In this document: one piece after another, positions 1 to 17,304 of the stretch
Numbering within the stretch: position 1 is the stretch's first letter
Layout: every line of letters begins with the position of its first letter
NCBI GenBank assembly: GCA_028713935.1
Contig: JAQTNI010000027.1
Location: forward strand, 1 to 18,434
Length of the DNA stretch: 18,434 bases
Reading direction: 5' to 3'
Source: Candidatus Iainarchaeum sp.
GTDB lineage: Archaea; Iainarchaeota; Iainarchaeia; Iainarchaeales; GCA-2688035
Made by a program: the position numbers and the translations under genes
Notes under the pieces: model-generated
Database searches by the model: none
Told to the model about the DNA's origin: nothing
What the model saw: the letters and a program-made list of their open reading frames with translations, nothing else

Positions 1-124
1 TTGCCCGCCGCGCGCGATGGCAAGATAATGATAAAATCAAAATTAACAGATATTGCCGCTGTATCTGCGGGCACAAAGGTGCCACAACGCAGAATTAGCG
101 GCTCTTAACAGTAATGGATTGACT

Positions 125-149
125 TAAACTTTCTTTTTAAGAAAGTTTA
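125..149. terminator. Perfect 11-bp inverted-repeat hairpin (TAAACTTTCTT / AAGAAAGTTTA, 3-nt TTT loop)
   Basis: Read directly from the sequence. It lies between the GC-rich left edge and the 11-nt tRNA-end repeat. It could act as a bidirectional terminator-like structure. No function is proven. Confidence 0.35.
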
Positions 150-159
150 GCGGGGTGAG
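149..159 (-). repeat. 11-nt direct copy (AGCGGGGTGAG on +) of the tRNA-Cys 3' end; candidate distal att half-site
   Basis: Identical to 10109-10119, which covers the discriminator, the 3' acceptor strand and the first 3 nt of the T-stem of the minus-strand tRNA. Same orientation. It is G/C-rich in AT-rich DNA. Confidence 0.35.
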
Positions 160-270
160 AAATAAGCCCTGACGAGTTCAAATACCTTGTAACCAATATG
201 TTTAACCTTGCGAAACAGATTTTTTAAAGCTTGTGCTGGCCATAGCTTTGCGCCTCCAATCTGAAAATCA

Positions 271-879
271 GTGACTTTTAAAGCCAAGCTGTTGTTATTT
301 AAGCTTTTTAACCAAAATAATATCGTGAATCGCTTGTCAAAAATAAGGTATCCAAAATTTTTGTTGCTGATTCTGACTTTTATAATTGCCTATATTTTGT
401 TTAGTGGCAGAAATTTGTTGTTTTTGCAACAGGCCTTGCTCGCTTTAAATTATTTGGGGAGTTTTTTTGCTGGAATTTTTTTTGTTTATGGGTTTACTGC
501 TGCTCCGGCAACAGCGATTCTTTTGATTATTGCCAAACAGCAGAATATTGTTGTAAGTTGTCTTGTTGCGGGAATTGGAAGCGTTATTGGAGATTTGATT
601 ATTTTCAAGATTATTAGGCATTCTTTTCAGGATGAAATTGATGAATTGTCAAGAGAAGAAATTTCTCTTCAAATTGAAAAAAGTATTCCAGGTTTTTTGA
701 AAAAGTATTTGGCAGTAATTTTTGCCGGGTTAATAATTGCTTCGCCTCTTCCAGATGAGATTGGTGTTTCCTTGTTGGCCATGGCAACAAAAATTTCACA
801 GAAAAAGTTTATTGTTTTGTCTTATGTTCTGAACACAATTGGAATTTTTGTTATTCTGCTGATTGGTTCTGGAATATGA
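271..879 (+). CDS. DedA/YqaA-like (VTT-domain) integral membrane protein
   Basis: 202-aa GTG-start ORF with multiple hydrophobic segments. GSVIGDLIIF and ASPLPDEIGV motifs resemble the DedA/COG1238 family. Its architecture is similar to 16104-16595. Confidence 0.55.
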   Translation: MTFKAKLLLFKLFNQNNIVNRLSKIRYPKFLLLILTFIIAYILFSGRNLLFLQQALLALNYLGSFFAGIFFVYGFTAAPATAILLIIAKQQNIVVSCLVAGIGSVIGDLIIFKIIRHSFQDEIDELSREEISLQIEKSIPGFLKKYLAVIFAGLIIASPLPDEIGVSLLAMATKISQKKFIVLSYVLNTIGIFVILLIGSGI

Positions 880-891
880 CTGTTTTTTCTG

Positions 892-3330
892 TTAAGGGTT
901 TTGTTCAAATATTTTGTAGAACCTAGTTTTGAGGAAGTCTGTAATAAGGAAAGAACTTATGGCAAGTGCCCATACTATTGCTGCAAGGTTCCAGCCTATT
1001 GGTGCGAGCAATATTCCGTAAACTGCGATTATTGTGGCAATTGTTTGTGTTCCGAGAACAGCTGCTAATAAGATTTTTGAGGGTTTTACTGTCCAGAATC
1101 CTTTTTTTGTTCTTGCTGCAAAAATCAAAAAGTGGCCTGCAATTGAAAGTTTTAGGTAAATGAAAGTTTGAAGTGTTGCTAAGGGCAGTTTCAATATTTC
1201 CAGGCCAATGTATAACACTGTGAATGAAGTGAAAACCCCGATTATTCCCAAAAAAGTTGCTACCCCCAAAAGAGACTGCATATTCCATCTTTCTGGCTTG
1301 TCAGAATATTTTACATTGTCATAGGCAATTGTCATTATTGAAACATCATTTAGAATTGCTAAAAGAACGATTATTACTGCTGAAACTGGATAAAAATTAA
1401 ACACGATTATTGAGAGGCTAACAAAAATTAGTATTCTTATTGTTTCTGCAATCCTGTAAATTGCATAATTTGTCATTCTTTGAAAAATTTTTCTGCTTTC
1501 TTTTATAGAATCAATTATTGTTGATAATCCTTGTTGTGCAAAAACAATGTCTGCAACTGATTTTGCTGCGTCTGTTGCATTAATAACTGCAATTCCTGCG
1601 TCTGCTTTTCTTAATGCGGGGGCATCGTTTACTCCGTCTCCTGTCATTCCAATAATGTGGTTTTTTGCCTGTAAAATTTCGACTATTTGGAATTTGTTTT
1701 CTGGATAAACTTCTGCAAAACCGTCAGAATTTTCAATTATTTCTGTTTTTTCGCTTTCAGAAAGGTTTATGAAAGAGGATGCCTGCACAATGTTTGTTCC
1801 AAGCCCTACTTGTTTTGCTGTTTCTTTTGCAATTGCAATATGGTCTCCGGTAATCATTTTTACATTGATTCCCATTGATTGTGCGGTTTGGATTGTTTCT
1901 TTTGAATCAATTCTTGGAGGGTCATACAAAGCGATTAACCCGCATATTTCCCAATTGCTTTTTCCACTTTTTTTTGCAACACCAAGCGCCCTATAACCTT
2001 TTTTTGCAAATTCTTCGACAAAATTCATTATTTTATTGTTATTTTTGTTTTCTTGCACAAGTGCCAGAATGCTTTGGGGAGCTCCTTTTGCAATAATGAT
2101 TTTTTTGCCCTTGTTGTCTTCAAAGATTGCTTCGCTTTTTTTTGTTATCGGGTCAAAAGAGCGGAATTCAACAAGCTTGAGTTTGCTTGTTTCCAAAAAA
2201 ATATTTTCTCTCTCTGCTTTTTCAATAATTGCATTGTCTATTGGGTCATTATCTTCTTTTTTTGACGCAAGAACCCCTGAGAAAAGAACGTCTTTTTCAG
2301 AAAAACCATTAAATCCAATTATTTCTGCAACTGACAACTGGTTTTTTGTAATTGTGCCTGTTTTGTCGGAGCATAATATGTCAATGCCTGCGAGTTCTTC
2401 TATTGCTGCAAGTTTGCTTACTATTGCCCCTTTTTTTGCAAGTGCAATAGCGCCAACTGCAAGAGTTACTGATAAAACAGCTGGCAACGCAACAGGGATG
2501 GATGCGACAACAAGAATGAGGGAAAATTGCAAAATTTCAAGGATATTTTCATGCCTGAACAGGGAAACAAGAAAAACAATTGCAACAAGAACCAATGCAA
2601 AAATAGTTAAAAAATTTCCTATTTTTACAATTGCTTCTTGAAGGTGGCTTGGTGCTTTTGCAGCTTGGATTAGTTTTGCAGTGTGGCCAAAAAAAGTGTT
2701 CATTCCAGTTGAAACGATTATTCCTGTTAGTTCGCCGTGGTTTACAATAGAACCTTCGAAAATAATGTCTGAAACGTGTTTTTCAACTGGCAGTGATTCT
2801 CCTGTCAAGGAAGATTCGTCAGCAAGAACATAGTCTTCTTCAATTATTTTTACATCTGCAGGAACAAAATTTCCTATTCGCAATCTTGCGATATCCCCTG
2901 GCACTAATTCTTTTGAATCAACCGAAATCCAGTTATTGTCCCTTAAAACCATTGCTTTCTGAACAAGTCTTTGTTTTAATGCTTCAATTGCATGGTCTGC
3001 TTTGCGTTCCTCCCAAAAGCTAACTCCTACGTTCAAAAAAAGCAATGCAAGAATAATCCAAAAATCGTCCCATTGGCTTACAAGTGCCGATAAAATAAGT
3101 GCAATTTCAATCATCCAGGGAATAGGCCCCCAAAAGTAAAACCCAAATTTCAAAAAAAGATTCGACTTTTTTTCAACAATTTCGTTTTTTCCGAATTGCT
3201 CAAGTCTTTTTTTTGCGTCTTCCGAAGAAAGCCCGGTTTTGCTTGAAAAAATTTTTTGAAAAATCTCTTCCAGAGAAAGATTTTTTGCATCCGAAGTAGT
3301 CAAAACAGAATTGTCCATAAACAAAGCCAT
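892..3330 (-). CDS. P-type ATPase, plasma-membrane H+-ATPase-like (P3A type)
   Basis: 812 aa. It has the LTGESLPV actuator motif, the CSDKTGTITKNQL phosphorylation site, MITGDHIAIAKETAKQVGLG and the GMTGDGVNDAPALRKADAGIAV hinge. The N-terminus LSSEDAKKRLEQFGKNEI is typical of P3A pumps. Confidence 0.9.
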   Translation of the reverse strand: MALFMDNSVLTTSDAKNLSLEEIFQKIFSSKTGLSSEDAKKRLEQFGKNEIVEKKSNLFLKFGFYFWGPIPWMIEIALILSALVSQWDDFWIILALLFLNVGVSFWEERKADHAIEALKQRLVQKAMVLRDNNWISVDSKELVPGDIARLRIGNFVPADVKIIEEDYVLADESSLTGESLPVEKHVSDIIFEGSIVNHGELTGIIVSTGMNTFFGHTAKLIQAAKAPSHLQEAIVKIGNFLTIFALVLVAIVFLVSLFRHENILEILQFSLILVVASIPVALPAVLSVTLAVGAIALAKKGAIVSKLAAIEELAGIDILCSDKTGTITKNQLSVAEIIGFNGFSEKDVLFSGVLASKKEDNDPIDNAIIEKAERENIFLETSKLKLVEFRSFDPITKKSEAIFEDNKGKKIIIAKGAPQSILALVQENKNNNKIMNFVEEFAKKGYRALGVAKKSGKSNWEICGLIALYDPPRIDSKETIQTAQSMGINVKMITGDHIAIAKETAKQVGLGTNIVQASSFINLSESEKTEIIENSDGFAEVYPENKFQIVEILQAKNHIIGMTGDGVNDAPALRKADAGIAVINATDAAKSVADIVFAQQGLSTIIDSIKESRKIFQRMTNYAIYRIAETIRILIFVSLSIIVFNFYPVSAVIIVLLAILNDVSIMTIAYDNVKYSDKPERWNMQSLLGVATFLGIIGVFTSFTVLYIGLEILKLPLATLQTFIYLKLSIAGHFLIFAARTKKGFWTVKPSKILLAAVLGTQTIATIIAVYGILLAPIGWNLAAIVWALAISSFLITDFLKTRFYKIFEQNP

Positions 3331-3435
3331 AATTCTTATCTAAAATCAAGCATATTATTTTTTCCACAAGCTGAGCTTTACCCGTCAAGTCTGTCTTGCC
3401 TGCAAAATCGGCTCAAATATACGCCCTAGCTCTTT

Positions 3436-4026
3436 TCAGCAAATAATTTTTCTGAACTTTCGTTTGGAACCAGTTATTGTAATCTCAAAAATAGAAGTAT
3501 TCTCAACTATTGTTTCAAGCGCCTTCTTTTGTCTCCAACCTAAGATTAGTTTCAACAAAATAATTGTTGTGCCAGAGTGGCTTACTATTAAAAAGTTTTT
3601 AAATTTAAAAGAAAGAATTTTTTTAAGAACGAGCTTTAGGCGTTTTTCCAAATCTGAAAAAGATTCTCCTTTCTGGGGCCTTGTTCTGAAATGGTTTTTG
3701 CGCCATTTTTTTTCAAGCAAAGCATTTTTGCCCGTTAATTCTGAAGGTTTTTTTCCTTCCCAATCACCAAATTTTCCCTCACGCAAACCTTTTTCTTTGA
3801 ACAATTTTGGCTTTGGAGAAATTTTTTTTGCAACAATGTGTGCAGTAACCGATGCTCTTGAAAGGTCGCTGAAAAAGATTGCTTGAATGTTTTTTTTTGA
3901 AAAAAAATTTGCAATGCTTTCTGCTTGTTGTTTTCCTAACTTTGTCAGCCGCGTGTTGCCCTGCCCAGAAAACCTGTATTGAGCATTAAAAATGCTTTGG
4001 CCGTGCCGTGCCAAAAAAATTTTCAT
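3436..4026 (-). CDS. Histidine-phosphatase superfamily protein (phosphoglycerate-mutase-like); candidate glycosyl-3-phosphoglycerate phosphatase
   Basis: 196 aa. It has the RHG motif (LARHGQS) at the N-terminus and a second catalytic His in IVSHSG. It starts 4 nt after the stop of the GT81-like gene on the same strand. Confidence 0.8.
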   Translation of the reverse strand: MKIFLARHGQSIFNAQYRFSGQGNTRLTKLGKQQAESIANFFSKKNIQAIFFSDLSRASVTAHIVAKKISPKPKLFKEKGLREGKFGDWEGKKPSELTGKNALLEKKWRKNHFRTRPQKGESFSDLEKRLKLVLKKILSFKFKNFLIVSHSGTTIILLKLILGWRQKKALETIVENTSIFEITITGSKRKFRKIIC

Positions 4027-4030
4027 GCTA

Positions 4031-5167
4031 TCACTCGGATTTTTCCTCTATTAACAGCAATTCTGAAAGGTCTTGGATTGTTTTGTCAGCAATTTTTTCA
4101 AGGCCTGATTTGCCAAAAGCAATGCCAAGCGCACCTGCTTTCAAAAGAATTTCTTCTTTTGGAATTGTTCCCACAATTGCGGTATCTTCAAGCGAAAAAC
4201 CATTTTTTTTCAGTGTTTTTTTTACTCTTGATAATAGTTTGTGTTCTGGAACATTTGCATTCAAAAAGCTGTGGCAGCCAATTTGTTTTGCTTTTTCTTT
4301 TGCATTGTTGCTATAGCCAAGCATTATTATTTTTGCTTTTCTTTTTTTCAATCTGCTAATTACTTCTAATGCGTTTTTGCGAAGTTTAGAATTGGAAAAC
4401 AAAGCATTTTCTGAAAAAACAATTGCTTTGAAAAATTGCATTGTTAAACCGGATTTTTTTAGCATTGTTTCAAGCACTTGTTTTGACATTTCTGCAACCT
4501 CTTCATTGGAATGACCTCTGTGGACTATTGTTCCAATATCCACTTCAACAATTTTTTGACCCGCTTTTACCGCATCGAGCAAAATAGCAATGTCAATTCC
4601 ATATCTGTCCTCTATTGTAAGGCCTGACAAAAAAGATTTTTTTCCTGCAAACTGCCCGGAAATTGGCTGGCTGAACTCAAGTTTGGGATAAAGAATTTTT
4701 ATCATTGGCTTTACTGCAAATTCTGTAACTCTTCCTCTCGCCCTTGAAAAAGTTGATTTTGTGAACTCTGCCTTATTCTCCAGTATTGGCATTATAAGTT
4801 TTCTTATTTTTTCAGTGTCGATGTTTTGTAAGTCAGCATCAAGGAAAAGAATTATTTCGTTGGAAGAGTTTTCAATGCCTGTTTTTACTGCTTTTCCTTT
4901 TCCAAGATTTTTTTCATGTCGAATTATTTTTACATTAAGCCTTTTTAAGGATTCAATTGTTTTGTCAGTACTGCCATCATCAACAACGATTACTTCTGAA
5001 ACAAAATAACTGCCAAGGGCTGTTTTTGCAACTTTCCTAATTGTTTTTGCTTCGTTAAATGCGGGTATTATTATTGTTGCCTTGCGCGGGGCAAAAGACC
5101 ATAAAAATTTTCCAAACCCGCGGAGAGGATATTCAATTATTTTTGCAATAAAATCTGTTAAAGTCAT
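4031..5167 (-). CDS. GT81-like glucosyl/mannosyl-3-phosphoglycerate synthase fused to a degenerate HAD-like C-terminal domain
   Basis: 378 aa. IIIPAFNE, VVDDGSTD, GKGKA, LDADL and the block RGRVTEFAVKPMI...QPISGQFAG...YGIDIAILLD...HR...MSKQV match my recollection of the GpgS family (for example the Rv1208 type). The C-terminal ~130 aa look HAD-like but read AIVFSENAL and IVGTIPKEE where DxDxT and GDxxxD are expected. Confidence 0.75.
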   Translation of the reverse strand: MTLTDFIAKIIEYPLRGFGKFLWSFAPRKATIIIPAFNEAKTIRKVAKTALGSYFVSEVIVVDDGSTDKTIESLKRLNVKIIRHEKNLGKGKAVKTGIENSSNEIILFLDADLQNIDTEKIRKLIMPILENKAEFTKSTFSRARGRVTEFAVKPMIKILYPKLEFSQPISGQFAGKKSFLSGLTIEDRYGIDIAILLDAVKAGQKIVEVDIGTIVHRGHSNEEVAEMSKQVLETMLKKSGLTMQFFKAIVFSENALFSNSKLRKNALEVISRLKKRKAKIIMLGYSNNAKEKAKQIGCHSFLNANVPEHKLLSRVKKTLKKNGFSLEDTAIVGTIPKEEILLKAGALGIAFGKSGLEKIADKTIQDLSELLLIEEKSE

Positions 5168-5179
5168 GAGAGAGCCTTT

Positions 5180-6322
5180 TTATTTTAGTATTTTGTATGT
5201 CAGGTATGCAAATTCCACCCCGATTTTTTCTAATTCTTTTTTTATTCCAAGGTTTATTTTTTGCTGGGTGTCCATATATTCATTGTAATTATTGGAGTCT
5301 AAAAAATAGACTGTTTCAAATTTTAAGGCATAGTCTCCAAATTCTTTGAAGTGTATTCTATCAACACGGGTTTTTTCCTGGTTTTCAATTATTTTTTTTA
5401 CAATTTGCGGAATTTTTTCAATTTTTTTTGTTGGTGTTTCATATGCCACCCCAAATCCAAATTGCACTCTTCGGTAATCCATTTTTTTGAAATTGTGAAT
5501 TTTTGAAGAGGTTAACTCCTGATTTGAGATTATTAGTTCTTCGCCGCGCAGGCTCTTAAGGCGGGTTGACCTTATGCCTATTTTTTCCACTACCCCCATT
5601 TCTTCTCCAATGATTAAAAAATCGCCTTCTGCGAACGGCTTGTCGAAATAAATTGCAAAAAAATTTAAAACATCCTGGAGAATATGCTGTAATGCAAGTG
5701 CAATTGCTATTCCTCCAATTCCAAGACCGGCTATCAATGGGGTTATTTCAACGCCGATGTTTGCAAGAAAAATCAGTGCTGCAAAAAGCCATAATATGAG
5801 TTTTGCAAAAATAGCGAGGTAATGCATTGCTTTTGGCTGGTTTGAAACATCCTCGCCATTTTTTGCTCTTTGTTTTTCATATTCTTTTACAAAAAAGTCA
5901 ATCAGGTTTTGTAAAGCGCGGACAGCATAATATAATGCGCCTATCAGCAACAAATAGTACGAGGCGTCTTGAATTATTTTCGGTGTTTCCAAAACTTGGA
6001 TTGAAAAATAAAAAGCAATTATTGCATAAAAAGGAAACTTGATTGAATTAATCATTTCAATTAGGGCATCATCGTATTCGGTTTTTGTTTTCAAAGCCAT
6101 TTTCTTTAGAATCCGAAGAAGATATTTTTTGAAAACAAAAGCTATTGCCATTAGAACCAAAAAAACAGTTATAAAAAACAAGTATTGGGCAAAAGTGTTT
6201 CCAAAAAAACTTATTTCAAGAATTTCACTAATGCTCAAAAAAATCACCTTTGTATTCAACTGGCTGTAAAAAACAAGGAAATTATGAATTTGAATAATAA
6301 AACACTTGATTGGATACAGCAT
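5180..6322 (-). CDS. Small-conductance mechanosensitive channel (MscS family)
   Basis: 380 aa. It has N-terminal TM helices, the pore helix LIAGLGIGGIAIALALQ, and a beta-domain GDFLIIGEEMGVVEKIGIRSTRLKSLRGEELIISN. The true start within the first ~30 codons is uncertain. Confidence 0.85.
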   Translation of the reverse strand: MLYPIKCFIIQIHNFLVFYSQLNTKVIFLSISEILEISFFGNTFAQYLFFITVFLVLMAIAFVFKKYLLRILKKMALKTKTEYDDALIEMINSIKFPFYAIIAFYFSIQVLETPKIIQDASYYLLLIGALYYAVRALQNLIDFFVKEYEKQRAKNGEDVSNQPKAMHYLAIFAKLILWLFAALIFLANIGVEITPLIAGLGIGGIAIALALQHILQDVLNFFAIYFDKPFAEGDFLIIGEEMGVVEKIGIRSTRLKSLRGEELIISNQELTSSKIHNFKKMDYRRVQFGFGVAYETPTKKIEKIPQIVKKIIENQEKTRVDRIHFKEFGDYALKFETVYFLDSNNYNEYMDTQQKINLGIKKELEKIGVEFAYLTYKILK

Positions 6323-6572
6323 AATGAGATTATTAGGACCGAACTCCCACCCTATAATTTATTTCCCGCCACTCTGCTTTATTTTTTTGTATTTAGTCGG
6401 TACAGCCTATCCTTTACTATAATTTTATAATCTAAGCCCAACCACCTCCTGCCTTCCAACTTTGCCTTTTTTTGGAGTGAGAAAGCCAATAAGTTAATTG
6501 TTTTTTGCCACTAATATAATTGATGTTCAAAAAAACAATTAAAAAATTGAAAAGCGCATAAAAAAAGTAAAA

Positions 6573-7319
6573 TTGTCTAAAAAAGATATTTTTTTATGCA
6601 TTTTTGACCAATTCTATTCAATGAATAATCAAAAAATTTCTGTTGCGAATACTGTTAAAGAGCTTATTGAACAAAACCCTTATGTGCGAAACAATCTCAC
6701 AGACGGCCTCATAAATATCTCTGCTTTGGCAAGAAAGCTTGCCCCAGAACTTGAAACAAAGTTTGGCAAAAAAATCAAGGAAGAATCACTGATTGTTGCA
6801 ATAAGAAGATACTCTGACGAAATCAAAGGCAAAAGCATTAAAGAGGATTATGCAAAAATTTTTGCAAATTCCCAGCTTTCAATGCAGGAAAACATGGCTT
6901 ATGCAGTTCTCCAAAGAAACGAAAAAACAATTCTGGCACTTGAAGCAATCGTAAAGGAAACAGACTGGCAGGTTGGAGAATTACGCATAATAATTCAAAG
7001 CTCTCCAAAAATAATTGTCCTATTAAAAAAGCCTCGCTTGGAAAATATGTTGTCGCAAGTTGAAGACTGCATTATAAAAAAAATAAGCGACAAAACACTC
7101 TTGACTTTGCATGCAAAACCAGAAGACATAATTACTTATGGGGTAATTGCAGAGATAGCCGGCTTATTGTCAAAAAAAGGCATTGCAATAGAACCAATCA
7201 GTGTATATTCTGACCTTCATTTCTTGGTTGACGAAAAAAAAGCAGAAGAAGCATACAGCACACTAAAAGAGTTCCTAAACAAAGCAAGGCAACTAACTGA
7301 AGAAAACAACAAAAATTGA
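6573..7319 (+). CDS. ACT-domain protein with an HTH-like N-terminus (putative small-molecule-responsive regulator)
   Basis: The C-terminus VIAEIAGLLSKKGIAIEPISVYSDLHFLVDEKKAEEAY looks like an ACT_7-type domain. The tracked ORF starts at TTG 6573. The ATG at 6621 (MNNQKISV) is the more likely start. Confidence 0.55.
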   Translation: MSKKDIFLCIFDQFYSMNNQKISVANTVKELIEQNPYVRNNLTDGLINISALARKLAPELETKFGKKIKEESLIVAIRRYSDEIKGKSIKEDYAKIFANSQLSMQENMAYAVLQRNEKTILALEAIVKETDWQVGELRIIIQSSPKIIVLLKKPRLENMLSQVEDCIIKKISDKTLLTLHAKPEDIITYGVIAEIAGLLSKKGIAIEPISVYSDLHFLVDEKKAEEAYSTLKEFLNKARQLTEENNKN

Positions 7320-7339
7320 AAAGCAATTTTTTGAAATGC

Positions 7340-7618
7340 TCATTTGAATCTTCTTCTCCACTTTTGCAGCGGCATTGTTTCAATATGAAATTGCCATTGC
7401 AAGAGCTTTATCAAAACCATTGAAATAGCAGTAGTAACAAGCAGCATGAACAATAGCATTCCCCAGTCTCCAGTGCGAAGAAAATACAAGGTAAAATCTC
7501 CACTCCAAAGCCTAAGTTGCAGTGAAATGAAAAGCACTATTGCAAAAGCAATCAAAAAAATTATTATTTTCCATGACCAGGAAATTACTCTCCCTATAAT
7601 TATTGCTGCAGAATTCAT
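7340..7618 (-). CDS. Small membrane protein (92 aa, 2-3 TM), translationally coupled to the antiporter
   Basis: Its ATG overlaps the antiporter TGA in an ATGA overlap at 7615-7618. The profile is hydrophobic. I recognise no family. Confidence 0.5.
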   Translation of the reverse strand: MNSAAIIIGRVISWSWKIIIFLIAFAIVLFISLQLRLWSGDFTLYFLRTGDWGMLLFMLLVTTAISMVLIKLLQWQFHIETMPLQKWRRRFK

Positions 7619-8895
7619 GTTTCACTGCCCATTATTTTTTCAGAGATTTTTATTTCTTCAAGCGCTTCGTTTTTTTCGCTTGTTTTTTTGTCATTTTTTT
7701 TTCTTTCGCTGAAAATGACGCCTGCACTGGTTATTATGTTTGAAAACAGGATTATCAAAAAAACTATTTGAATTGTTTGTGTTGCAAAATCAATCTGGAG
7801 GCCAGCACTTAAAGGATAAGATGCAAGGACTGCCGCTGCAAGGCCGCGCGGCATCATTATTGAAATTGCCTTGTTATCACTTGAATCTTTTTTGGATGCC
7901 TTGTAAAGCAGTTTTGTTATTGCAGTTCTTGCAAGCAGAAGAGCAATTGCAATGCCAATTGAAACCAGGATAACAAAGCTTGTTACCATGGACAGTTCAA
8001 AAATTATTCCAATATAAATAAAGAAAAATGTTCGAATAAAAAAAGATATTTCTTTTTGGAACAAAGAAATGTTTGTGTCTAGAGTAATTGGTTTCATTCG
8101 CAAAAAGTTCATTATTGCCCACGAGTTTCCTAAAACTAATCCGAAGGCAAGTGCTGCAATTGCCCCGTTGCTTTTTACGAATTCTGCTATGAAAAAGACT
8201 GAAAAAAGAACTGCGATTGTCAAGATATATTCCATTTCTTTTATTGTTTTTATGTCGCGCAATAGTTTCATCCAGATTATTGCTGCAATTGCCCCAATGC
8301 CTATTGCTATTAGAAATGCGCCTGCAATGCTGTGGCTTATTTGTTGCGCGTCTATTGTTGAACTAAGCACGATTTCGATTAAAACAATTGTAACAATTAT
8401 GCATAAAGCATCTGTGAATGCTGATTCAAGATTTAACAATATTTTTGTTTCAGGTTTTACATTCATTCTTTCTATTAATGACAAGACTATTGCACTGCTT
8501 GTGCCGCCAATTATTGCGCCAAGAATCAGGCCGTAAAGAAGAGGCCATCCAACAGCAAGCATTGTAAGTGAAACCACTGTAATGCTTGCCAAAAAAACCA
8601 GGATAATGAAAACAAAGGCAAACCTTAGTTCATGAATAACCTTGAAAAAATTCATTTTCAAGCCGCTTTCAAACAAGAGCATTATTAAAACAAGAGCAGC
8701 CAGAAAAGGCGCAAGTTCACGTATCAATGCAATTGTCTGAAAATCAATTAATTGAAAAACAGGCCCTATCAACAAGCCCAAAATCATCAATAGTAGGACA
8801 TCTGACAATTTTGTTTTTTTAAAAACAAGCATGCCAATAAAGCCAGAAAAAATAACCAGTGCTATAATCAAAAGAATTGTTTCAGTGCCAAACAA
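7615..8895 (-). CDS. Cation:proton antiporter, CPA1/NhaP-like
   Basis: 426 aa, polytopic. The N-terminus ILLIIALVIFSGFIGMLVFKKTKLSDVLLLMILGLLIGP and the segment LNLESAFTDALCIIV are typical of the Na+(K+)/H+ exchanger fold. It has a TTG start and no upstream extension is possible because of a TGA at 8905-8907. Confidence 0.85.
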   Translation of the reverse strand: MFGTETILLIIALVIFSGFIGMLVFKKTKLSDVLLLMILGLLIGPVFQLIDFQTIALIRELAPFLAALVLIMLLFESGLKMNFFKVIHELRFAFVFIILVFLASITVVSLTMLAVGWPLLYGLILGAIIGGTSSAIVLSLIERMNVKPETKILLNLESAFTDALCIIVTIVLIEIVLSSTIDAQQISHSIAGAFLIAIGIGAIAAIIWMKLLRDIKTIKEMEYILTIAVLFSVFFIAEFVKSNGAIAALAFGLVLGNSWAIMNFLRMKPITLDTNISLFQKEISFFIRTFFFIYIGIIFELSMVTSFVILVSIGIAIALLLARTAITKLLYKASKKDSSDNKAISIMMPRGLAAAVLASYPLSAGLQIDFATQTIQIVFLIILFSNIITSAGVIFSERKKNDKKTSEKNEALEEIKISEKIMGSET

Positions 8896-9058
8896 AAAAT
8901 CACTTCAAAAATTGTTGATAAAATTAATGCCTTCATCATATTAAAATTTAACCCAAAAAACACTGTTAACAGAAAAGAAAGCAAAAAATGCGCATTCTGC
9001 CAAACAACAAGATCAATTACCATGATTAATTAACTTGGACGTTTCCTTTCTTTTTTGG

Positions 9059-9871
9059 TTAAAATGTCTCAAAATGTCGCACTTTTTTGTCAGGTTCTTT
9101 CAAACCATGCATGCGCAAAATAGCATCATCAACCTGCTTGCCAGACAAGTGAACATATTGCGCAGCCATTTTTGATTCCTGCACCCAGCCAAAATATTCT
9201 TTTAGTTGTGCTTCAGTCAAAAACTGGGCCATGTACGTTGCTCTTGAATGCCGAAAATGATGCGGATTAACAGGCTTTTGAATTTTTGCTCTTGTACCAC
9301 TTTTTTTTAAAACAGCAACCATGTTTCTATGGTGCATTCTTCCGGCAAATGTTTTTTCAATGTTCACGAAAGCAAAAGCATTTGGGTTTCCTCTTTCTGG
9401 ATGCTGATTTATCCATTCCAAGAGATTTGGTGCTGAATTTACGAGTCTTACTCTTCTCATGCCGGTTTTTCCATCAACAAGAATTTTGCAGCCGAACTCG
9501 TCAAAAACAATGTTCTTCAATTGCAGGGTTCCTATTTCTCCAATTCTTGCGCCAGATTCCCATAAAACAGAAATCAAGGCCTTATCGCGCAAATTCAAAG
9601 CATTTTTTTCCATTTCTTTGACATCCTCTTGAGATAACAGGCTTTCAGGCAGTTTATGCGAATGTTTGTTAGTGCTCTTAAACCAAGCAACACAAGCAGG
9701 ATAACCCTTGCCCTTGTTAAGCCACTTGTAAAAAACCTTCAAAACTTCCTTGTATGTGTCCAGTGTTGAGGGAGATTTTTTTTGTTCTTTTAATAAGCCA
9801 ACAAACCTTTGAAAATCTTCTACAGTAGCTGCTTCAAAATCCTTTTTCAAGAAAAGGCTGACAATTTTCAA
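9059..9871 (-). CDS. Tyrosine recombinase / archaeal integrase (core-binding and catalytic part)
   Basis: Catalytic signature present: WESGARIGEI (Arg), HHFRHSRAT (His-x-x-Arg) and AAQYVHLS (Tyr). The tracked TTG start is really an internal Leu of a longer frame (see 9932-10036). Confidence 0.85.
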   Translation of the reverse strand: MKIVSLFLKKDFEAATVEDFQRFVGLLKEQKKSPSTLDTYKEVLKVFYKWLNKGKGYPACVAWFKSTNKHSHKLPESLLSQEDVKEMEKNALNLRDKALISVLWESGARIGEIGTLQLKNIVFDEFGCKILVDGKTGMRRVRLVNSAPNLLEWINQHPERGNPNAFAFVNIEKTFAGRMHHRNMVAVLKKSGTRAKIQKPVNPHHFRHSRATYMAQFLTEAQLKEYFGWVQESKMAAQYVHLSGKQVDDAILRMHGLKEPDKKVRHFETF

Positions 9872-9931
9872 AGAACTAATATGCTTAACAAGCCTGGGGA
9901 TAGAAAGGTCTCTGGGATAATTAAAATTTTA

Positions 9932-10036
9932 AAAATCCAGAATCAGTTTCTTGTTATGAACAGAAACAGGATATTTATCCAAATCCCTGAATTGATGCGC
10001 TAAAATTGTTTCGTAATCGTAAATATATGTTTTCAT
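9932..10036 (-). CDS. 35-codon N-terminal segment of the integrase, separated from the rest by one in-frame TAA (9929-9931)
   Basis: ATG at 10036-10034, preceded by GGAG with a 10-nt spacer. The frame is continuous with 9059-9871 except for the single TAA: MKTYIYDYETILAHQFRDLDKYPVSVHNKKLILDF*NFNYPRDLSIPRLVKHISSLKIVSLF. Confidence 0.55.
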
Positions 10037-10044
10037 ATGCAACA

Positions 10045-10089
10045 CTCTCCTAAACCGAAAAACACTTAAAAACACTCTGTTTAGGAGAG
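10045..10089 (-). promoter_or_regulatory. Perfect 11-bp inverted repeat (CTCTCCTAAAC ... GTTTAGGAGAG, 23-nt spacer) covering the integrase Shine-Dalgarno (SD)
   Basis: Read directly. On the minus strand the 3' arm contains the GGAG that precedes the integrase ATG. The spacer carries a tandem AAAAACACT motif. Confidence 0.45.
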
Positions 10090-10143
10090 AGCTGACATTT
10101 ACTATCAAAGCGGGGTGAGGGAGTTGAACCCCCTTACTCGGCT

Positions 10144-10234
10144 AACCGCTGCAAACAGCGCCCTGCCGGATTTCTTTTTCTTTTGGGCACCTTGCACTTT
10201 TCTTTTTCTTTCCCAAAGAAAGAGAAAAGGGCAG
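10144..10234 (-). other. tRNA-Cys intron (91 nt), BHB-bounded
   Basis: Exon 1 is 10270-10235 (36 nt) and exon 2 is 10143-10109 (35 nt). Boundaries are inferred from manual BHB folding and could be off by 1-2 nt. Confidence 0.65.
10171..10228 (-). repeat. Three-arm Y-R-R element, copy A (inside the tRNA intron)
   Basis: Minus-strand sense: TTTTCTCTTTCTTT-GGG-AAAGAAAAAGAAAA-GTGCAAGGTGCCC-AAAAGAAAAAGAAA. Homologous to 16737-16786. Confidence 0.7.
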
Positions 10235-10274
10235 CTGCAGGCCGGTCCATGACCGTTCTGGCAACCCCGCAAAA

Positions 10275-10313
10275 GCCTTTCGAAGCACTCGCTGATGCTC
10301 GCTTTCGAAAGCC
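10275..10313 (+). repeat. Hairpin repeat H, copy 1 (identical 17-nt core CTCGCTGATGCTCGCTT)
   Basis: GCCTTTCGAAGCA-CTCGCTGATGCTCGCT-TTCGAAAGCC. It directly abuts the tRNA-Cys 5' end and lies ~45 nt downstream of the CDP-alcohol transferase stop. The second copy is at 17244-17287. Confidence 0.7.
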
Positions 10314-10357
10314 TTGGGAAAATTGAATTGTTATTTAATTGGGAATTGGAACTTATT

Positions 10358-10981
10358 TTAATGCTTTTCGCGGCTTTTATCGGCAAATTTTTTTGCCAGC
10401 AGGATTCTTTGCAGCGCTGTTATGTTTGAAAGCACTGCTAAAATAATCAGGACGAAAACCAGGTAAAGCGGGTTTATTACTGCCAGCAGGATTCCAACAA
10501 ACAGGATTATGAGGCGCTCCGCTCTTTCAAGTATTCCGCCTTTCAATTCTTTGCCTTCAATTACCAATTCTTTTTCTTTTGCAGAGGCCTTTGCATAAGT
10601 TGTCATCAGGCTTCCAAAAAAATAAAGGAAAATCCATGCATAGGCTGGAATAAAAAATTCCGGCAGGGAAGCAAACAGCAGGCCAAAAACAATCATTCCT
10701 TCCACATAGCGGTCAACAATTGTGTCCAGATAAGCCCCGAATTTTGAAACAGTGCCTGTAACGCGCGCAACACTTCCATCAACAAGGTCGATTGCCGCGG
10801 AAATAAAAAACAAAATTGCGGCTGCCAAAAATTGCTCTTTAACCAAAAAATAAACAGCAATAATTGCGGGGATTAATGAAACAAGAGTCCATTGGTTTGC
10901 GGAAAGGGGAACTTTGCTGCAAATAACCCCAATTTTAATTGACAATTTGTTGAATTTTTCCCTTTGCCTGTACAAAGTCAT
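10358..10981 (-). CDS. CDP-alcohol phosphatidyltransferase; likely archaetidylinositol-phosphate synthase
   Basis: 207 aa, polytopic. The signature D-x2-D-G-x2-A-R-x8-G-x3-D-x3-D is read in AIDLVDGSVARVTGTVSKFGAYLDTIVDRYVE. It starts 3 nt after the MIPS stop. Confidence 0.8.
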   Translation of the reverse strand: MTLYRQREKFNKLSIKIGVICSKVPLSANQWTLVSLIPAIIAVYFLVKEQFLAAAILFFISAAIDLVDGSVARVTGTVSKFGAYLDTIVDRYVEGMIVFGLLFASLPEFFIPAYAWIFLYFFGSLMTTYAKASAKEKELVIEGKELKGGILERAERLIILFVGILLAVINPLYLVFVLIILAVLSNITALQRILLAKKFADKSREKH

Positions 10982-10983
10982 TT

Positions 10984-12099
10984 TTATCTTTCCCTGCTGC
11001 CCTGAATAAATTCTTCAAGCATCTGCCTTGCAATGTCATCAGGATACTGGATTGGAGGATGCTTCATAAGATAAGCGGAAATAGAGGTTAATGGCCCGGA
11101 AATTTTTCTGTCAAGGGCAATTTTGCATGCGCGGATTGCATCGATTACAACGCCGGCGCTGTTTGGGCTGTCTTCAACGCTTAACCTCAATTCAAGGTTC
11201 ATTGGAATGTCGCCAAACTGGCTTCCTTCAATGCGCAGAAAACAAATTTTTTGGTCAAAAAGCCATGGCACATAATCGCTTGGCCCTACATGAATCAATT
11301 CCCAGGGAAGAGGCGCAGACATATTTGACTGGACTGATTCTGTCTTGGAAATTTTTTTGCTCTTCAGCCTTGCCTGTTCCTTCATGTTCAAAAAATCAGT
11401 GTTGCCCCCAACATTCAATTGGTAAGTGCCGTTGATTTTTATTCCGCGGTCACAGGCAAGCTTTGCCAAAACCCTGTGGACAATTGTGGCGCCCAACTGG
11501 CTTTTCATGTCATCGCCAAGAACAGGCAGGCCCTTTGACTCAAATTTTTTTGCCCACTCTGAATTGGAGGCAATAAAAACAGGCATGCAGTTTATGAAAC
11601 CGCATCCCGCTTCAAGCGCGGCCTGTGCATAAAATTTTGTGGCTTCCTCGCTGCCGACAGGTATGTAATTGACAAGAATTTCTGCGCCGGATTTTTTAAG
11701 CTCGGAAATAACATCAACAGGCTTCTGTTTTTCATCAACCAAAAAAGCCCTGTCTGCTGGCCAGTCAGCCATATGGCTTGCAACCCCATCAAGCACCGGG
11801 CCTTTCTGCACAATCACTTTTTGCTTTGGAATTTTTTTGCAGAAAACCTTTGTGCAATTCGGCTTTTCAAAAATCGCTTCCGAAAGGTCCTTGCCTACTT
11901 TTCTCCTGTCAATGTCAAAAGCGGCTACAAACTTAATGTCGGAAATCTTGTAAGGGCCGAAAACATTGTGCATAAGCCCCGGCACCGGCTCAGCATTTGA
12001 ATCGACATCCTTGTAATAATAAATTCCCTGCAAAAGCGAGGAAAAACAATTCCCAACTCCAGAAACAGCAACCTTAATCTCTCCTGCCAGAAAAACCAC
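10984..12099 (-). CDS. myo-inositol-1-phosphate synthase (archaeal type)
   Basis: 371 aa. It has the N-terminal Rossmann segment KVAVSGVGNCFSSLLQGIYYY, the MKSQLGATIVHRVLA and LNVGGNTDF blocks, and a C-terminus SPNSAGVVIDAIRACK. GTG start. Confidence 0.85.
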   Translation of the reverse strand: MVFLAGEIKVAVSGVGNCFSSLLQGIYYYKDVDSNAEPVPGLMHNVFGPYKISDIKFVAAFDIDRRKVGKDLSEAIFEKPNCTKVFCKKIPKQKVIVQKGPVLDGVASHMADWPADRAFLVDEKQKPVDVISELKKSGAEILVNYIPVGSEEATKFYAQAALEAGCGFINCMPVFIASNSEWAKKFESKGLPVLGDDMKSQLGATIVHRVLAKLACDRGIKINGTYQLNVGGNTDFLNMKEQARLKSKKISKTESVQSNMSAPLPWELIHVGPSDYVPWLFDQKICFLRIEGSQFGDIPMNLELRLSVEDSPNSAGVVIDAIRACKIALDRKISGPLTSISAYLMKHPPIQYPDDIARQMLEEFIQGSRER

Positions 12100-12286: not shown

Positions 12287-13579
12287 TTAATCACGTGGCC
12301 CATTTTCCAACATCCATTTCCAAGTTGGCATTATTGTTATTTTTTTTCCGGAAACGGCAATTTTTTCTTCCTGGTCGTTTGTTAGTATTATTCCTTTTTT
12401 TAGTTTGAATTTGTTCATTGTTTCTATTAAGCCAGCCATTTCCCGTTCTCTGTTTTCAGGAGTTAGCTTCCATGTTGCTTGAATTGCTTCAACAATCTGG
12501 TTTCCTTGTTTTATTACAAAATCACACTCTTTTGTTTCACTTGAGTAATAAATATCTTTTGACCTTCTTTTGAGTTCTATTGCGACAAGGTTTTCAAGCA
12601 TTTTCCCTTCATTATCACTGAAGCGAAAACCCAAAGCAGTAATTAAACCGTTGTCAATGCAATACAATTTTCTTGGATTTTGAATTTGTTTTTTTATGGA
12701 AAAATCAAATTTTGGCAGGAAAAAAAACAAGAAAGAATTTTCAAAAGCATTTAAGACTTTTTTAACGCTTAATAAATTTGTTATGCCCATTAATTCTCCG
12801 GCCTTTCTAGAACTAATCTTTCCAGATGGATTCGAAAGAAAGTAAGACGATAATTCTTTCACTGGTTTTTCCAAATTGGCCCCTAATCTTGCTATCACGT
12901 CACGATAAAGAATGTTTTCGTATAGTTCTCTCAAAATTGTTTCATCCCCAGAAAGAACCATTTTTGGAAAACCGCCTGTTTTATAGTATTCCAAAAAAGC
13001 GCGTCGTATTAGCGCTTGTTTTTTTGCATCAAGCAAATAATTTTCCGTCTTAATTTTTTTGGCAAACAAAAATTCTTTGAAACTGAATGGCTCTAAATGA
13101 AGATTAATGCTTCTGCCCGTAAGGGTGCTTGCTATTTCCTTGCTCAAAAGCTTTGAATTGGAACCGGTTATAATTATTGGGTGTTTTTCTTTCAATCTGT
13201 TAACCCATTTTTCCCAGTGCTCGGCTTCCTGAACTTCATCAATAAACAAAAAGCATTTTTCAGAATATTTATTTTCAATTAAAAAATCTTCAATTTTTTG
13301 AAAGTCGCTATGTTCAAAACCTATTAACCGTTCATCGCTGAAATCCACAAAAAGACAGCTCCCTTTGCTTAATTTGAGTTCATCTCTAATCAGAACCATT
13401 AGTGATGATTTTCCGCAACGCCGCACCCCAGTTATTATGAGAGGCAATTTGAGTTTCAATAAAGAAAGCATTTTAGAAACCGCTTCTCTACGAATAAGAT
13501 TTTGAGGGCCAAAAAACTGGTTCTGTTGGCTTGAAAGCACCACATACAAAGAGTTTCTGTCCATACCAATAATGTTCAC
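12287..13579 (-). CDS. AAA_14 ATPase with DUF4143-type C-terminal region carrying a PD-(D/E)xK-like motif
   Basis: 430 aa. Walker A is ITGVRRCGKSSL and Walker B is FLFIDEVQ. The C-terminus ENLVAIEL...ECDFVIKQGNQIVEAIQATWK is read as a possible E...D...E-x-K nuclease-like signature (inference). Confidence 0.8.
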   Translation of the reverse strand: MNIIGMDRNSLYVVLSSQQNQFFGPQNLIRREAVSKMLSLLKLKLPLIITGVRRCGKSSLMVLIRDELKLSKGSCLFVDFSDERLIGFEHSDFQKIEDFLIENKYSEKCFLFIDEVQEAEHWEKWVNRLKEKHPIIITGSNSKLLSKEIASTLTGRSINLHLEPFSFKEFLFAKKIKTENYLLDAKKQALIRRAFLEYYKTGGFPKMVLSGDETILRELYENILYRDVIARLGANLEKPVKELSSYFLSNPSGKISSRKAGELMGITNLLSVKKVLNAFENSFLFFFLPKFDFSIKKQIQNPRKLYCIDNGLITALGFRFSDNEGKMLENLVAIELKRRSKDIYYSSETKECDFVIKQGNQIVEAIQATWKLTPENREREMAGLIETMNKFKLKKGIILTNDQEEKIAVSGKKITIMPTWKWMLENGPRD

Positions 13580-13601
13580 CGAACAAAATATAAACCTTTC
13601 T

Positions 13602-13772: not shown

Positions 13773-14108
13773 TTGTTTGCAATGGCAGCGGATATTTCAA
13801 AAAGCAGGGAAATGGAAAGGCTCAGGAAAAAGCTTACAGTGGACTTGCTCTGGATTTACCTTTTGGGAATTTTAAGGAAAGAGCCGATGCATGCTTATGC
13901 ACTGCGCAGTGAAATTGAAAAGCGCTTCGGCTTTCTCCCTGGAAATGTTTCCGCCTATGTTGTGCTTTACAAATTGCAAAGCAGGGGCTTTGTTTCTTCT
14001 TTGCAGAAAGGAAACAGGACTGTTTATTCAATAACGCAAAAAGGAAAGGAATTGCTTAAAGAAGCTGAAAAGGAATTTTCCGCAAAACAAAAAATGCTTT
14101 TCAAGTGA
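13773..14108 (+). CDS. PadR-family winged-helix transcriptional regulator
   Basis: LLWIYLLGILRKEPMHAYALRSEIEKRFGFLPGNVSAYVVLYKLQSRGFVSS...RTVYSITQKGKELL. The likely true start is the ATG at 13782 (MAADISK). Confidence 0.85.
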   Translation: MFAMAADISKSREMERLRKKLTVDLLWIYLLGILRKEPMHAYALRSEIEKRFGFLPGNVSAYVVLYKLQSRGFVSSLQKGNRTVYSITQKGKELLKEAEKEFSAKQKMLFK

Positions 14109-14160
14109 ATTTGTTTTTTTCTGTTTCTTTTTTAATTTCATTGTTCTTATTCTTTTTTGA

Positions 14161-14997
14161 ATGGAAAGAAAATTATTGCTGCTGCTTGTTGCATTGTTCA
14201 TTGTTACGCAGGCAATCGGGCTTTTTGTCGCATACAATCTTGTTCTTGGAATCAGCTCGGGAGAAATTGCACAGCCGGGAATTGTAAGCGAAAATCCCAA
14301 TGATCCTTTGAATGCGCTTGCATTGATTGGATACATTCTCATTGGAACTGGGGTTTTTTTGGTTTCAATAAAATTCATGAAAAGGCCTTTTGTTTTCAGG
14401 ATTCTGGAGGCATTCATTGTTTTTATTACTTCCTGGATAGTGTTTGAATTTGCCTTTGGCGAGCCGATAGGAATAATCTGCGCCGCATTGTTTTTGATAA
14501 CAAGAATTGTTTTCAGCAAAAGCATCTGGCTGAGGAATGCAAGCAGTGTGATTTCAGCCGCAGTTGTCGGCTCTCTTGTGGGGGTTACTCTTGGAATGAT
14601 TCCTGTTTTGATTTTTGTAGTGGCTCTTGCAGTGTATGATTACATTGCTGTTTTCAAGACAAAGCACATGGTTGCGCTTGCAAAAGGAATCAAGGGAAAA
14701 AACCTTGCTTTTACAATTGCAATGCCAACCAAAGACCACACTTTTGAACTTGGCACTGGGGATTTTGTTGTCCCGCTTGCTTTTGCAACAAGCGCAATGC
14801 GCGGCTCTTTTGAATCTGGAATTGCTTTTCCAAATTATTTTTTCATTGCTTTCCTTATTCTCATTGGAAGCATTGTCGGATTAATTCTTACTCTGGAATA
14901 TTTAAGCAAAAGAATCGGGACAGCATTGCCTGCTTTGCCTGTCCAGACAGGAATAATGCTTGCAATGTTCCTGCTTGGAAAACTGCTTGGATTTTGA
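14161..14997 (+). CDS. Presenilin / signal-peptide-peptidase-like intramembrane aspartyl protease (A22 family, archaeal PSH type)
   Basis: 278 aa, polytopic. All three family motifs are present in the correct order: YD (LAVYDYIAVF), GxGD (LGTGDFVVP) and PAL (TALPALPVQ). Confidence 0.8.
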   Translation: MERKLLLLLVALFIVTQAIGLFVAYNLVLGISSGEIAQPGIVSENPNDPLNALALIGYILIGTGVFLVSIKFMKRPFVFRILEAFIVFITSWIVFEFAFGEPIGIICAALFLITRIVFSKSIWLRNASSVISAAVVGSLVGVTLGMIPVLIFVVALAVYDYIAVFKTKHMVALAKGIKGKNLAFTIAMPTKDHTFELGTGDFVVPLAFATSAMRGSFESGIAFPNYFFIAFLILIGSIVGLILTLEYLSKRIGTALPALPVQTGIMLAMFLLGKLLGF

Positions 14998-15275: not shown

Positions 15276-15292
15276 ATTCGTATGAAACTGGC

Positions 15293-16081: not shown

Positions 16082-16103
16082 CTCAAAAATTGGATTTTGA
16101 AAT

Positions 16104-16595: not shown

Positions 16596-16736
16596 TTGAA
16601 TCTTTTAAGAATAGGAAATTTGGGTTTAAATCCTTTTTGGCATTGAAAAGCAGGTTTTTAAAACAAAGCAAGTCTAATTTAATTAATAATAATTGTTTTA
16701 AATTCTCAATTTTTAAAGGGTGTTTTTTTGGCCGCC

Positions 16737-16786: not shown

Positions 16787-16827
16787 CCATAAACCTTTGA
16801 TAAACAGTTAAAAAAAAGTGTTTTTTT

Positions 16828-17287: not shown

Positions 17288-17304
17288 ACGAAAAACAAGG
17301 TGAA

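Follow-up and report, generated by a model that had tools for sequence, protein, structure and literature searches.

Results

Gene content of the locus

The window, i.e. the whole 18,434-nucleotide (nt) stretch of contig JAQTNI010000027.1 (assembly GCA_028713935.1, Candidatus Iainarchaeum sp.) that was analysed here, carries a tRNA-Cys(GCA) gene on the minus strand, a tyrosine integrase pseudogene adjacent to the 3' end of this tRNA, eight further genes and, beyond them, a second copy of the last 11 nt of the tRNA (Table 1). We consider it probable that the segment between the two copies, positions 160-10108, is a genomic island which site-specific recombination at the outermost 3' end of tRNA-Cys(GCA) brought into the chromosome of this Iainarchaeota-like DPANN archaeon. 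A first-pass annotation of the same DNA had proposed a tRNA-Cys-targeted integrated island at 149-10119, and this proposal is now supported by the repeat, by an empty site in a related genome, by the base composition of the segment and by the association of the integrase family with tRNA genes.

In a genome scan with the myo-inositol-1-phosphate synthase (MIPS) of the right flank the window fell within the Iainarchaeota (Diapherotrites, DPANN). The closest relative found was Ca. Iainarchaeum DeMMO3_25 (locus L003), with 93% amino acid identity in MIPS; the corresponding value for Zod_Metabat.1228 (locus L004) was 83%. The cargo genes and the integrase were annotated with Pfam and NCBIfam profiles, the latter being judged by their equivalog cutoffs.

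Table 1 Features of the window, ordered by position
Feature	Position	Strand	Remarks
Hairpin (10-11 bp stem), probable displaced tRNA-Cys trailer	125-148	-	
attR core, putative displaced copy of the last 11 nt of tRNA-Cys (CTCACCCCGCT)	149-159	-	
Probable inserted island	160-10108		9,949 bp
VTT/DedA-like membrane protein (VTT1)	271-879	+	Pfam VTT_dom 28.8 bits, under the gathering score; start at 325 in the Logan gene call
P3A plasma-membrane H+-efflux P-type ATPase	892-3330	-	TIGR01647 1006.7 bits (cutoff 615.5), full-length match
Histidine-phosphatase superfamily enzyme	3436-4026	-	Pfam His_Phos_1, E = 9.5e-43
GT2 glycosyltransferase, glucosyl-3-phosphoglycerate synthase (GpgS)-like	4031-5167	-	Pfam Glycos_transf_2
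MscS-type mechanosensitive channel	5180-6322	-	three Pfam MS_channel domains
DUF7523/ACT-domain protein	6573-7319	+	
92-aa hypothetical protein	7340-7618	-	no Pfam or NCBIfam match
Monovalent cation/H+ antiporter, Na_H_Exchanger fold	7615-8895	-	Pfam PF00999, E = 8e-42
Tyrosine integrase pseudogene	9059-10036	-	PF00589, E = 2.3e-17
Element-side spacer, attL to integrase	10037-10108	-	
attL core, 3' end of the intact tRNA-Cys	10109-10119	-	
tRNA-Cys(GCA), probable integration target	10109-10270	-	intron-aware ARAGORN
Right flank: CDP-alcohol phosphatidyltransferase	10358-10981	-	
Right flank: myo-inositol-1-phosphate synthase (MIPS)	10984-12099	-	
Right flank: AAA_14/DUF4143 ATPase	12287-13579	-	
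Right flank: PadR, presenilin-like peptidase, methyltransferase, VTT (VTT2), aIF2-beta	13773-18308	mixed	

The repeat and the intron-bearing tRNA-Cys

The window contains two copies of the 11-mer AGCGGGGTGAG, one at 149-159 and one at 10109-10119, both on the plus strand. No further copy with up to one mismatch was found in the window on either strand, nor any minus-strand copy with up to two mismatches. Read on the strand of the tRNA the 11-mer is CTCACCCCGCT, comprising the last 3 nt of the T-stem, the 3' strand of the acceptor stem (ACCCCGC) and the discriminator U73. Both the exact repeat in the same orientation and its assignment to this part of a tRNA-Cys agree with the first-pass annotation, which had identified the tRNA correctly and omitted its intron. 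Default ARAGORN and Rfam at the gathering threshold reported no tRNA anywhere in the window; with introns allowed, ARAGORN placed a tRNA-Cys(GCA) at c[10109..10270], containing a 91-nt intron (10144-10234) at the canonical position 37/38, and it is because of this intron that the default scans miss the gene. Since both exons are contiguous in the intron-less tRNA-Cys of Zod_Metabat.1228 (94% and 91% identity), the exon boundaries are independently confirmed. DeMMO3_25 and L103, a further locus of the integrase family, have tRNA-Cys orthologs which likewise bear an intron, of 128 nt and 138 nt, respectively.

The repeat is beyond chance. According to a first-order Markov model of the 10.1 kb downstream of tRNA-Cys, the 11-mer anchored at the 3' end of the tRNA is expected 1.6e-4 times, and any 11-mer from the last 30 nt of the tRNA 0.019 times (11 of 1000 simulations). 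The rarity of the 11-mer was borne out by the 2.26 Mb of fetched loci: apart from the Logan copy of this locus, the tRNA-Cys of DeMMO3_25 alone carries it, at its 3' end. The island is bounded, as is typical of tRNA-integrated elements, by direct repeats of which one is the 3' part of an intact tRNA gene. A reservation raised earlier, namely that 11 nt is short for an archaeal attachment (att) site, can be answered from the literature: lengths of 8, 11 and 13-14 bp are on record for archaeal att sites (PMC8371274, section 17), so that a core of 11 nt is nothing unusual.

Empty site in a related genome

The window and DeMMO3_25 are homologous at the nucleotide level from 12181 down to exactly 10109, i.e. 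to the 3' end of tRNA-Cys (81.5% identity over 2.1 kb); the two belong to different species. A separate high-scoring segment pair of 41 nt (87.8% identity, E = 7e-6) connects window 159-119 with DeMMO3_25 3326-3365. In DeMMO3_25 the end of tRNA-Cys is directly followed by AAACTTTTTTAGCAAAAAAGTTTAATC (3337-3363), the homolog of window 148-122. This part of the window includes the hairpin 125-148, AAACTTTCTTAAAAAGAAAGTTTAAGTC, which abuts the outer repeat and whose stem is kept between the two genomes by a paired C>T / G>A change. The window tRNA-Cys itself is followed by the integrase leader and not by this hairpin. In Zod_Metabat.1228, too, a hairpin stands immediately after tRNA-Cys, with a different sequence. 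DeMMO3_25 accordingly provides the empty site, in which tRNA-Cys is joined directly to the hairpin, over ~40 comparable nt and in a different species. The earlier suggestion that this hairpin (there 125-149) is the original sequence downstream of the tRNA gains support from the homolog in DeMMO3_25; it would be the ancestral tRNA-Cys trailer, now 9.95 kb away from its tRNA. None of the nine island genes gave a tblastn match downstream of tRNA-Cys in DeMMO3_25 (~9 kb) or in Zod_Metabat.1228 (~8 kb). In the former, an ABC-F gene and then the housekeeping genes tRNA-Val, L15e, Rpp14 and proteasome alpha were found instead.

Two further observations concern the left end of the window. A strong nested hairpin lies at 55-103 on the minus strand (GCCGCT..CTGCG..GGCAC / GTGCC..CGCAG..AGCGGC; z-score -4.4 for bases 1-160); it has no Rfam match, and an E-value-threshold Rfam scan of 1-400 yielded chance-level matches only. 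Furthermore, the only other public copy, Logan contig SRR22315509_1619725, corresponds exactly to window 101-6323 (6.2 kb). The ends of this contig may mark branch points of the assembly graph which arise from repeats or strain variation near the left island border.

Composition of the island

The background for all compositional comparisons is the 8.3 kb flank only. The GC content is 0.349 in the island versus 0.402 in the flank (AAA_14 region excluded), and the pooled GC content at third codon positions (GC3) is 0.30 versus 0.41. Gene by gene, GC3 varies between 0.26 and 0.355 for the nine island genes, the integrase included, and between 0.35 and 0.47 for the flank genes, with 0.309 for AAA_14 (Mann-Whitney p = 0.002 for island versus flank). 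The two VTT paralogs differ in the same sense (0.305 for VTT1 in the island, 0.402 for VTT2 in the flank). The synonymous-codon chi-square between island and flank lies above 96.6% of random gene splits, and the tetranucleotide correlation between island and flank is only slightly below those within each. Evidently, the composition of the segment deviates from that of the flanking chromosome, as the first-pass annotation had anticipated.

Best database matches were compared for two cargo genes, the glycosyltransferase (GT) and the ATPase, and for the flank MIPS. The best homolog of the GT shows 59% identity and the best matches of the ATPase, which come from Methanobacterium, Bathyarchaeia, Methanococcoides and even a bacterium, show 60-64%, as compared with the 93% for MIPS. 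With the caveat that metagenome-assembled genomes (MAGs) are incomplete, low GC3 and poor best matches fit an origin of the segment in a donor of lower GC that is not among the close relatives sampled.

These data also bear on the alternative that 149-159 is a coincidental match, the integrase a lone remnant, and the other eight genes native ones whose synteny has been lost. DPANN genomes are poorly syntenic, DeMMO3_25 and Zod_Metabat.1228 differ downstream of tRNA-Cys, and many 11-nt repeats exist in any 18-kb window. However, a match anchored at the tRNA 3' end is expected at the very low frequency given above, the copy at 149-159 adjoins the homolog of the very sequence that follows tRNA-Cys in DeMMO3_25, the compositional step coincides with the island boundaries, and the searched cargo genes reach at most 64% in their best matches in contrast to the flank MIPS. 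We therefore regard such a coincidence as highly improbable.

Cargo genes

The first-pass annotation had described the cargo as a coherent set for ion and osmolyte homeostasis. Of its members, the P3A ATPase is confirmed; the supposed GT81 synthase is not. The island GT scores 146.8 bits against NF010496 (GpgS; cutoff 262) and 27 bits against NF040724 (cutoff 700); an assignment as glucosyl-3-phosphoglycerate synthase (GT81) was rejected, both scores being below the equivalog cutoffs, and the enzyme can be called GpgS-like only. Some homologs of the GT are named GpgS or are fused to HAD phosphatases, and the neighbouring His-phosphatase is a candidate phosphatase partner of the GT. The two genes are adjacent also in L183, L184 and L186, three DPANN contigs with no integrase in view. 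In L183 and L184 they stand beside an antiporter 63% identical to that of the island, in L186 beside an OpuA-like ABC transporter, TreT-type synthases and MscS. Judged from these neighbourhoods, the gene set of the island appears to be a recurrent osmotic/ion-stress module.

No transposase or other recombinase was detected in the island with Pfam and NCBIfam, in line with the earlier statement that the integrase is not accompanied by further mobility genes. A self-transmissible or viral integrative element was considered and rejected, as the island contains, besides the integrase, only transport, metabolic or unknown genes.

The integrase pseudogene and its leader

The integrase gene adjoins one of the two att sites: its ATG is at 10036, separated from the tRNA end by a 72-nt spacer, and an in-frame stop (TAA) follows at 9929-9931. 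Start and stop had both been noticed in the first-pass annotation; the decay, which was taken there to consist of this one stop, goes considerably further. The closest homologs carry Tyr at the position of the stop (11 Tyr, 3 His, 1 Asn and 1 Cys in the column of a 17-sequence alignment). In addition, a frameshift is located in an A-run at ~9083, behind which shifted-frame remnants can still be recognized (KKCDILRH... vs KKEDILKQ...) and the zinc-ribbon cysteines are replaced. By frameshift and deletion the window integrase has lost the C-terminal ~75 aa of its homologs, i.e. the CxxC...CxxC zinc ribbon plus helices, and it is a pseudogene. The catalytic residues R164, K190, H259, R262, W284 and Y294 (numbering of P0002, a full-length family member) are invariant in the 17 sequences including the window copy, whose alignment shows the R-K-HxxR-[H/W]-Y pattern of tyrosine recombinases (PF00589). 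Its integrase being dead and further mobility genes absent, the island is fixed.

Because the homologs are ~75 aa longer, a split integrase of the suicidal SSV type was suspected. It was rejected, since the additional residues lie at the C-terminus and nothing is missing at the N-terminus: the homologs align with the window integrase from residue 1 on, so that ATG 10036 is the true start and there is no SSV-type split. A tblastn search with full-length homologs revealed no second integrase fragment in the window, and no integrase-like open reading frame (ORF) lies beside attR.

In the spacer 10037-10108 (fold z-score -3.95), a TATA-like TTTAA and the conserved TTTCGGTT are accompanied by an inverted repeat of 11 bp, CTCTCCTAAAC / GTTTAGGAGAG; the GGAG that precedes the ATG falls within the 3' arm of this repeat. 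This leader architecture is common to 8 family members; according to single-sequence folds the arms differ in sequence and stay complementary. In L083, L084, L085 and L103-L106 the order upstream of the integrase ATG is likewise TTTAA, then TTTCGGTT inside the hairpin, and L103 shares the leader motifs AGCTCTCTCCT...TTTCGGTTTAGGAGAG with the window. The conserved leader may be a translational or transcriptional control element, or else an integrase-binding inverted repeat. On the opposite side of the island, a T-arm-like motif was observed ~12 nt upstream of the attR core, both in the window (TTTGAACTCG at 173-182, minus strand) and in L085 (GGGGCTTCGAAC at ~9343-9354). Its presence at both attR sites suggests that attP carries a displaced mimic of the tRNA T-arm.

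The integrase family in other loci

Full-length homologs of the integrase comprise ~395-400 aa with a C-terminal zinc ribbon. They are labelled Diapherotrites, Micrarchaeota, Aenigmarchaeota, Nanoarchaeota and Thermoplasmatota, and the family was found mainly in DPANN MAGs. A tRNA on the same strand precedes the integrase by 57-160 nt in 19 of the 72 loci with enough upstream sequence. Among the closest relatives with enough upstream sequence the partners are tRNA-Ser (L083, L105, L188), tRNA-Thr (L085), tRNA-Cys (L103), tRNA-Asn (L104) and tRNA-Asp (L106); the exception is L084 (55%), where only a tRNA-like fragment precedes the integrase. L103 represents an independent tRNA-Cys insertion with an intact integrase, 59% identical to that of the window.

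The L085 contig contains two tRNA-integrase pairs. One of these elements, 6.25 kb in length and consisting of the integrase and eight small ORFs, is bounded by the 14-nt TCCCACCGGAGGCT. This sequence represents the last 14 nt of the L085 tRNA-Thr, ending at its last base (ARAGORN coordinates), and its second copy is located in an intergenic gap. Going by these coordinates, the repeat supports integration at tRNA 3' ends as a second bounded example.

Other repeats were not accepted. Near-anchored 9-nt matches in L131 and L182 are not distinguishable from chance as att repeats. In L187, a Diapherotrites MAG, a 12-14-nt copy of a tRNA-Leu 3' end was observed 66 nt upstream of a family integrase (9921-9934, 13504-13589), where the repeat bounds a 3.6-kb integrase/AbiEii segment; L187 was not counted as a further bounded element, since the self-complementary acceptor stem leaves the orientation of the repeat relative to the integrase ambiguous.

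Flanking genes

The MIPS gene and that of the CDP-alcohol phosphatidyltransferase (together 10358-12099, minus strand) are kept beside tRNA-Cys in both DeMMO3_25 and Zod_Metabat.1228 and probably make inositol-phosphate lipids or solutes. As this pair lies outside the island, the osmolyte-related inositol chemistry is native to the flank and not part of the cargo. The AAA_14/DUF4143 ATPase gene, which sits between MIPS and PadR, has an island-like GC3. It looks like a separate single-gene insertion, because PadR adjoins MIPS in the relatives L005, L006, L062 and L078 (gap of ~60-90 nt). Finally, a 52-nt palindromic repeat occurs at 10271-10322, directly 5' of tRNA-Cys, and at 17243-17294, just past the stop of aIF2-beta, with 81% identity between the copies; a role as terminator or promoter is conceivable, as is a small dispersed element.

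Discussion

Origin of the island

In the scheme that we propose, the element carried, 72 nt from the crossover site, the gene of a tyrosine integrase of the classical (non-suicidal) type, and this enzyme would have recombined the short core of the element with the identical last 11 nt of the tRNA. This recombination would have left the intact tRNA joined to the integrase at attL (10109-10119) and displaced the original tRNA end together with the trailer hairpin to attR (149-159 and 125-148). Later on, the integrase would have decayed through the nonsense codon, the frameshift and the loss of the zinc-ribbon tail, by which the island became fixed. The empty-site junction expected from this scheme is ...GGTTCAACTCCCTCACCCCGCT joined to AAACTTTCTTAAAAAGAAAGTTT, and the expected junction of the excised circle is ...CAGGGCTTATTTCTCACCCCGCT joined to TTGATAGTAAATGTCAGC. 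Of the integrase-plus-cargo island described in the first-pass annotation the boundaries stand; that the integrase delivered all 9.9 kb of cargo in a single event is what we infer from them.

Several observations weigh against this origin. As the window includes no more than 148 nt of left flank, ~40 A/T-rich nt are all that underlies the empty-site match. DeMMO3_25 has a second, degenerate copy of the site at 5228-5330, comprising 16 of the last 20 nt of tRNA-Cys and at least 80 nt of trailer with the hairpin and AAAGTTTAAT units (first copy at 3322-3460). The duplicated tRNA end and trailer flank a single ABC-F ATPase gene (3616-5193), with no integrase there, and the history of the site is therefore more complex than one clean insertion. 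The region 3' of tRNA-Cys differs among all three species, i.e. the window, DeMMO3_25 and Zod_Metabat.1228, so that the absence of genes alone is weak evidence. Among the family loci, few tRNA-integrase contigs extend far enough for a survey of att repeats; a clean 3'-anchored repeat of at least 11 nt was seen in the window and in L085 only, and several loci with 6-10 kb of downstream sequence have no tRNA-anchored repeat of at least 10 nt. The content of the island adds to these points. No replication, conjugation or virion genes were detected in it with Pfam and NCBIfam. Other elements of the family hold hypothetical ORFs, DUF3800 and a weak, sub-threshold T4SS-pilin-like match (T4SS, type IV secretion system) and none of the window cargo; not a single cargo gene is common to the window and 100 other integrase loci. 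As the cluster of GT, His-phosphatase and antiporter is present in other DPANN contigs without a visible integrase, the cargo could have accreted later or come by another route.

The duplicated tRNA end of DeMMO3_25, which flanks a single gene and no integrase, lends some weight to an origin of the window repeat without the integrase: the tRNA trailer would be prone to recombination, the repeat would stem from segmental duplication or from homologous recombination there, and the integrase would be a passenger. In the window, however, the identity covers no more than 11 nt, with its proximal limit exactly at the 3' end of the tRNA, and attL lacks the hairpin, as is characteristic of a site-specific crossover confined to the core. 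The integrase furthermore stands at the distance and in the orientation typical of its family, and L085 repeats the same geometry. A duplication independent of the integrase is consequently very unlikely.

The main alternative takes up the cargo. A small integrase element, like those of 3.5-6 kb found elsewhere, may have set the att cores and lost its backbone, after which the ion and osmolyte genes would have been added or swapped independently of the integrase; the island boundaries would then still be genuine. Such a mosaic would account for an island without an element backbone, for the hypothetical or mobile-element-like genes of the other family elements, which include none of the window cargo, and for the related gene cluster that occurs elsewhere without a visible integrase; the variable site 3' of tRNA-Cys in all three species and the second duplication in DeMMO3_25 point in the same direction. 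Against it, GC3 is uniformly low over all nine genes including the integrase, the island contains no internal degenerate att copy with up to two mismatches, and Pfam and NCBIfam reveal neither a transposase nor another recombinase in it. We consider later accretion of the cargo rather unlikely and retain integration of the island at tRNA-Cys as the probable origin.

Implications

A tRNA-linked genomic island whose integrase has decayed is a textbook phenomenon, and in kind the present island is a classical case. New are the DPANN host, an intron-bearing target tRNA which is missed by standard scans, and an integrase family that combines a zinc ribbon with a very short core at the 3' terminus. 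The genomes of DPANN archaea are very small, and there is debate on how these organisms gain functions. At the present locus, ~10 kb of stress-physiology genes with clean boundaries would have been inserted at a tRNA through an event of the integrase type, followed by fixation; judged from the gene families, the set would comprise an H+ pump, a cation/H+ antiporter, MscS and GpgS-like compatible-solute genes, with ACT and VTT proteins alongside. Because the 91-nt intron hides the target tRNA from default tRNA and Rfam scans, standard island finders will miss such islands. A tRNA-targeting integrase family which is widespread in DPANN and uses short att cores could help to delimit other integrated elements in MAGs.

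A broader proposal is put forward here only tentatively and may well prove too far-reaching: the ~400-aa zinc-ribbon integrases might constitute an undescribed, DPANN-wide family acting on no more than the last 11-14 nt of tRNAs, intron-bearing ones included, with a conserved hairpin that sequesters the ribosome-binding site and gates integrase synthesis, and they might be a main route by which whole adaptive modules, here an osmotic/pH-homeostasis set, enter genome-reduced DPANN.

Comparison with known systems

The layout of the locus, with an intact tRNA, an intact-type integrase at attL, the cargo and a partial tRNA repeat at attR, is that of the classical archaeal tyrosine-integrase elements of the pNOB8 and SNJ2 types (PMC8371274), and the integrase likewise consists of an N-terminal SAM-like domain and the PF00589 catalytic domain. 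The window att of 11 nt is comparable to those of SNJ2 (13-14 bp) and Msmi-Pro1 (11 bp) (PMC8371274). In contrast to these elements, the window integrase family measures ~400 aa, has an additional C-terminal CxxC...CxxC zinc ribbon with a helical tail and occurs mainly in DPANN, the likeness being one of layout, domains and att length. Moreover, the window copy is a pseudogene in an island devoid of an element backbone. The review cited makes no mention of DPANN or zinc (PMC8371274).

The best viral matches to the full-length member P0002 are integrases of Archaeoglobi pleomorphic (pro)viruses (Geoglobus acetivorans pleomorphic virus 1, ThalV2), with 35% identity over 86-95% of the length, reaching residue 387 of 399. 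Unlike these viruses, whose hosts are Euryarchaeota and not DPANN, the window island carries no viral genes. The archaeal chromosome-dimer resolvase XerA shares superfamily and domain order with the family and is the best NCBIfam match for P0002. An identification as XerA was nevertheless rejected, as P0002 reaches 112.8 bits against an equivalog cutoff of 220 (NF040815). Since family members lie beside tRNAs, occur twice on one contig (L085) and are pseudogenised in the window, they behave like mobile-element integrases and not like a housekeeping XerA.

Bacterial tRNA-linked islands, such as fitness and pathogenicity islands, are characterised by a target at the tRNA 3' end, direct repeats, deviant GC content, adaptive cargo and a decayed integrase. 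The window island shares all these traits and differs from its bacterial counterparts in its reduced-genome archaeal host, in the intron-bearing target tRNA and in an 11-nt core at the very 3' end.

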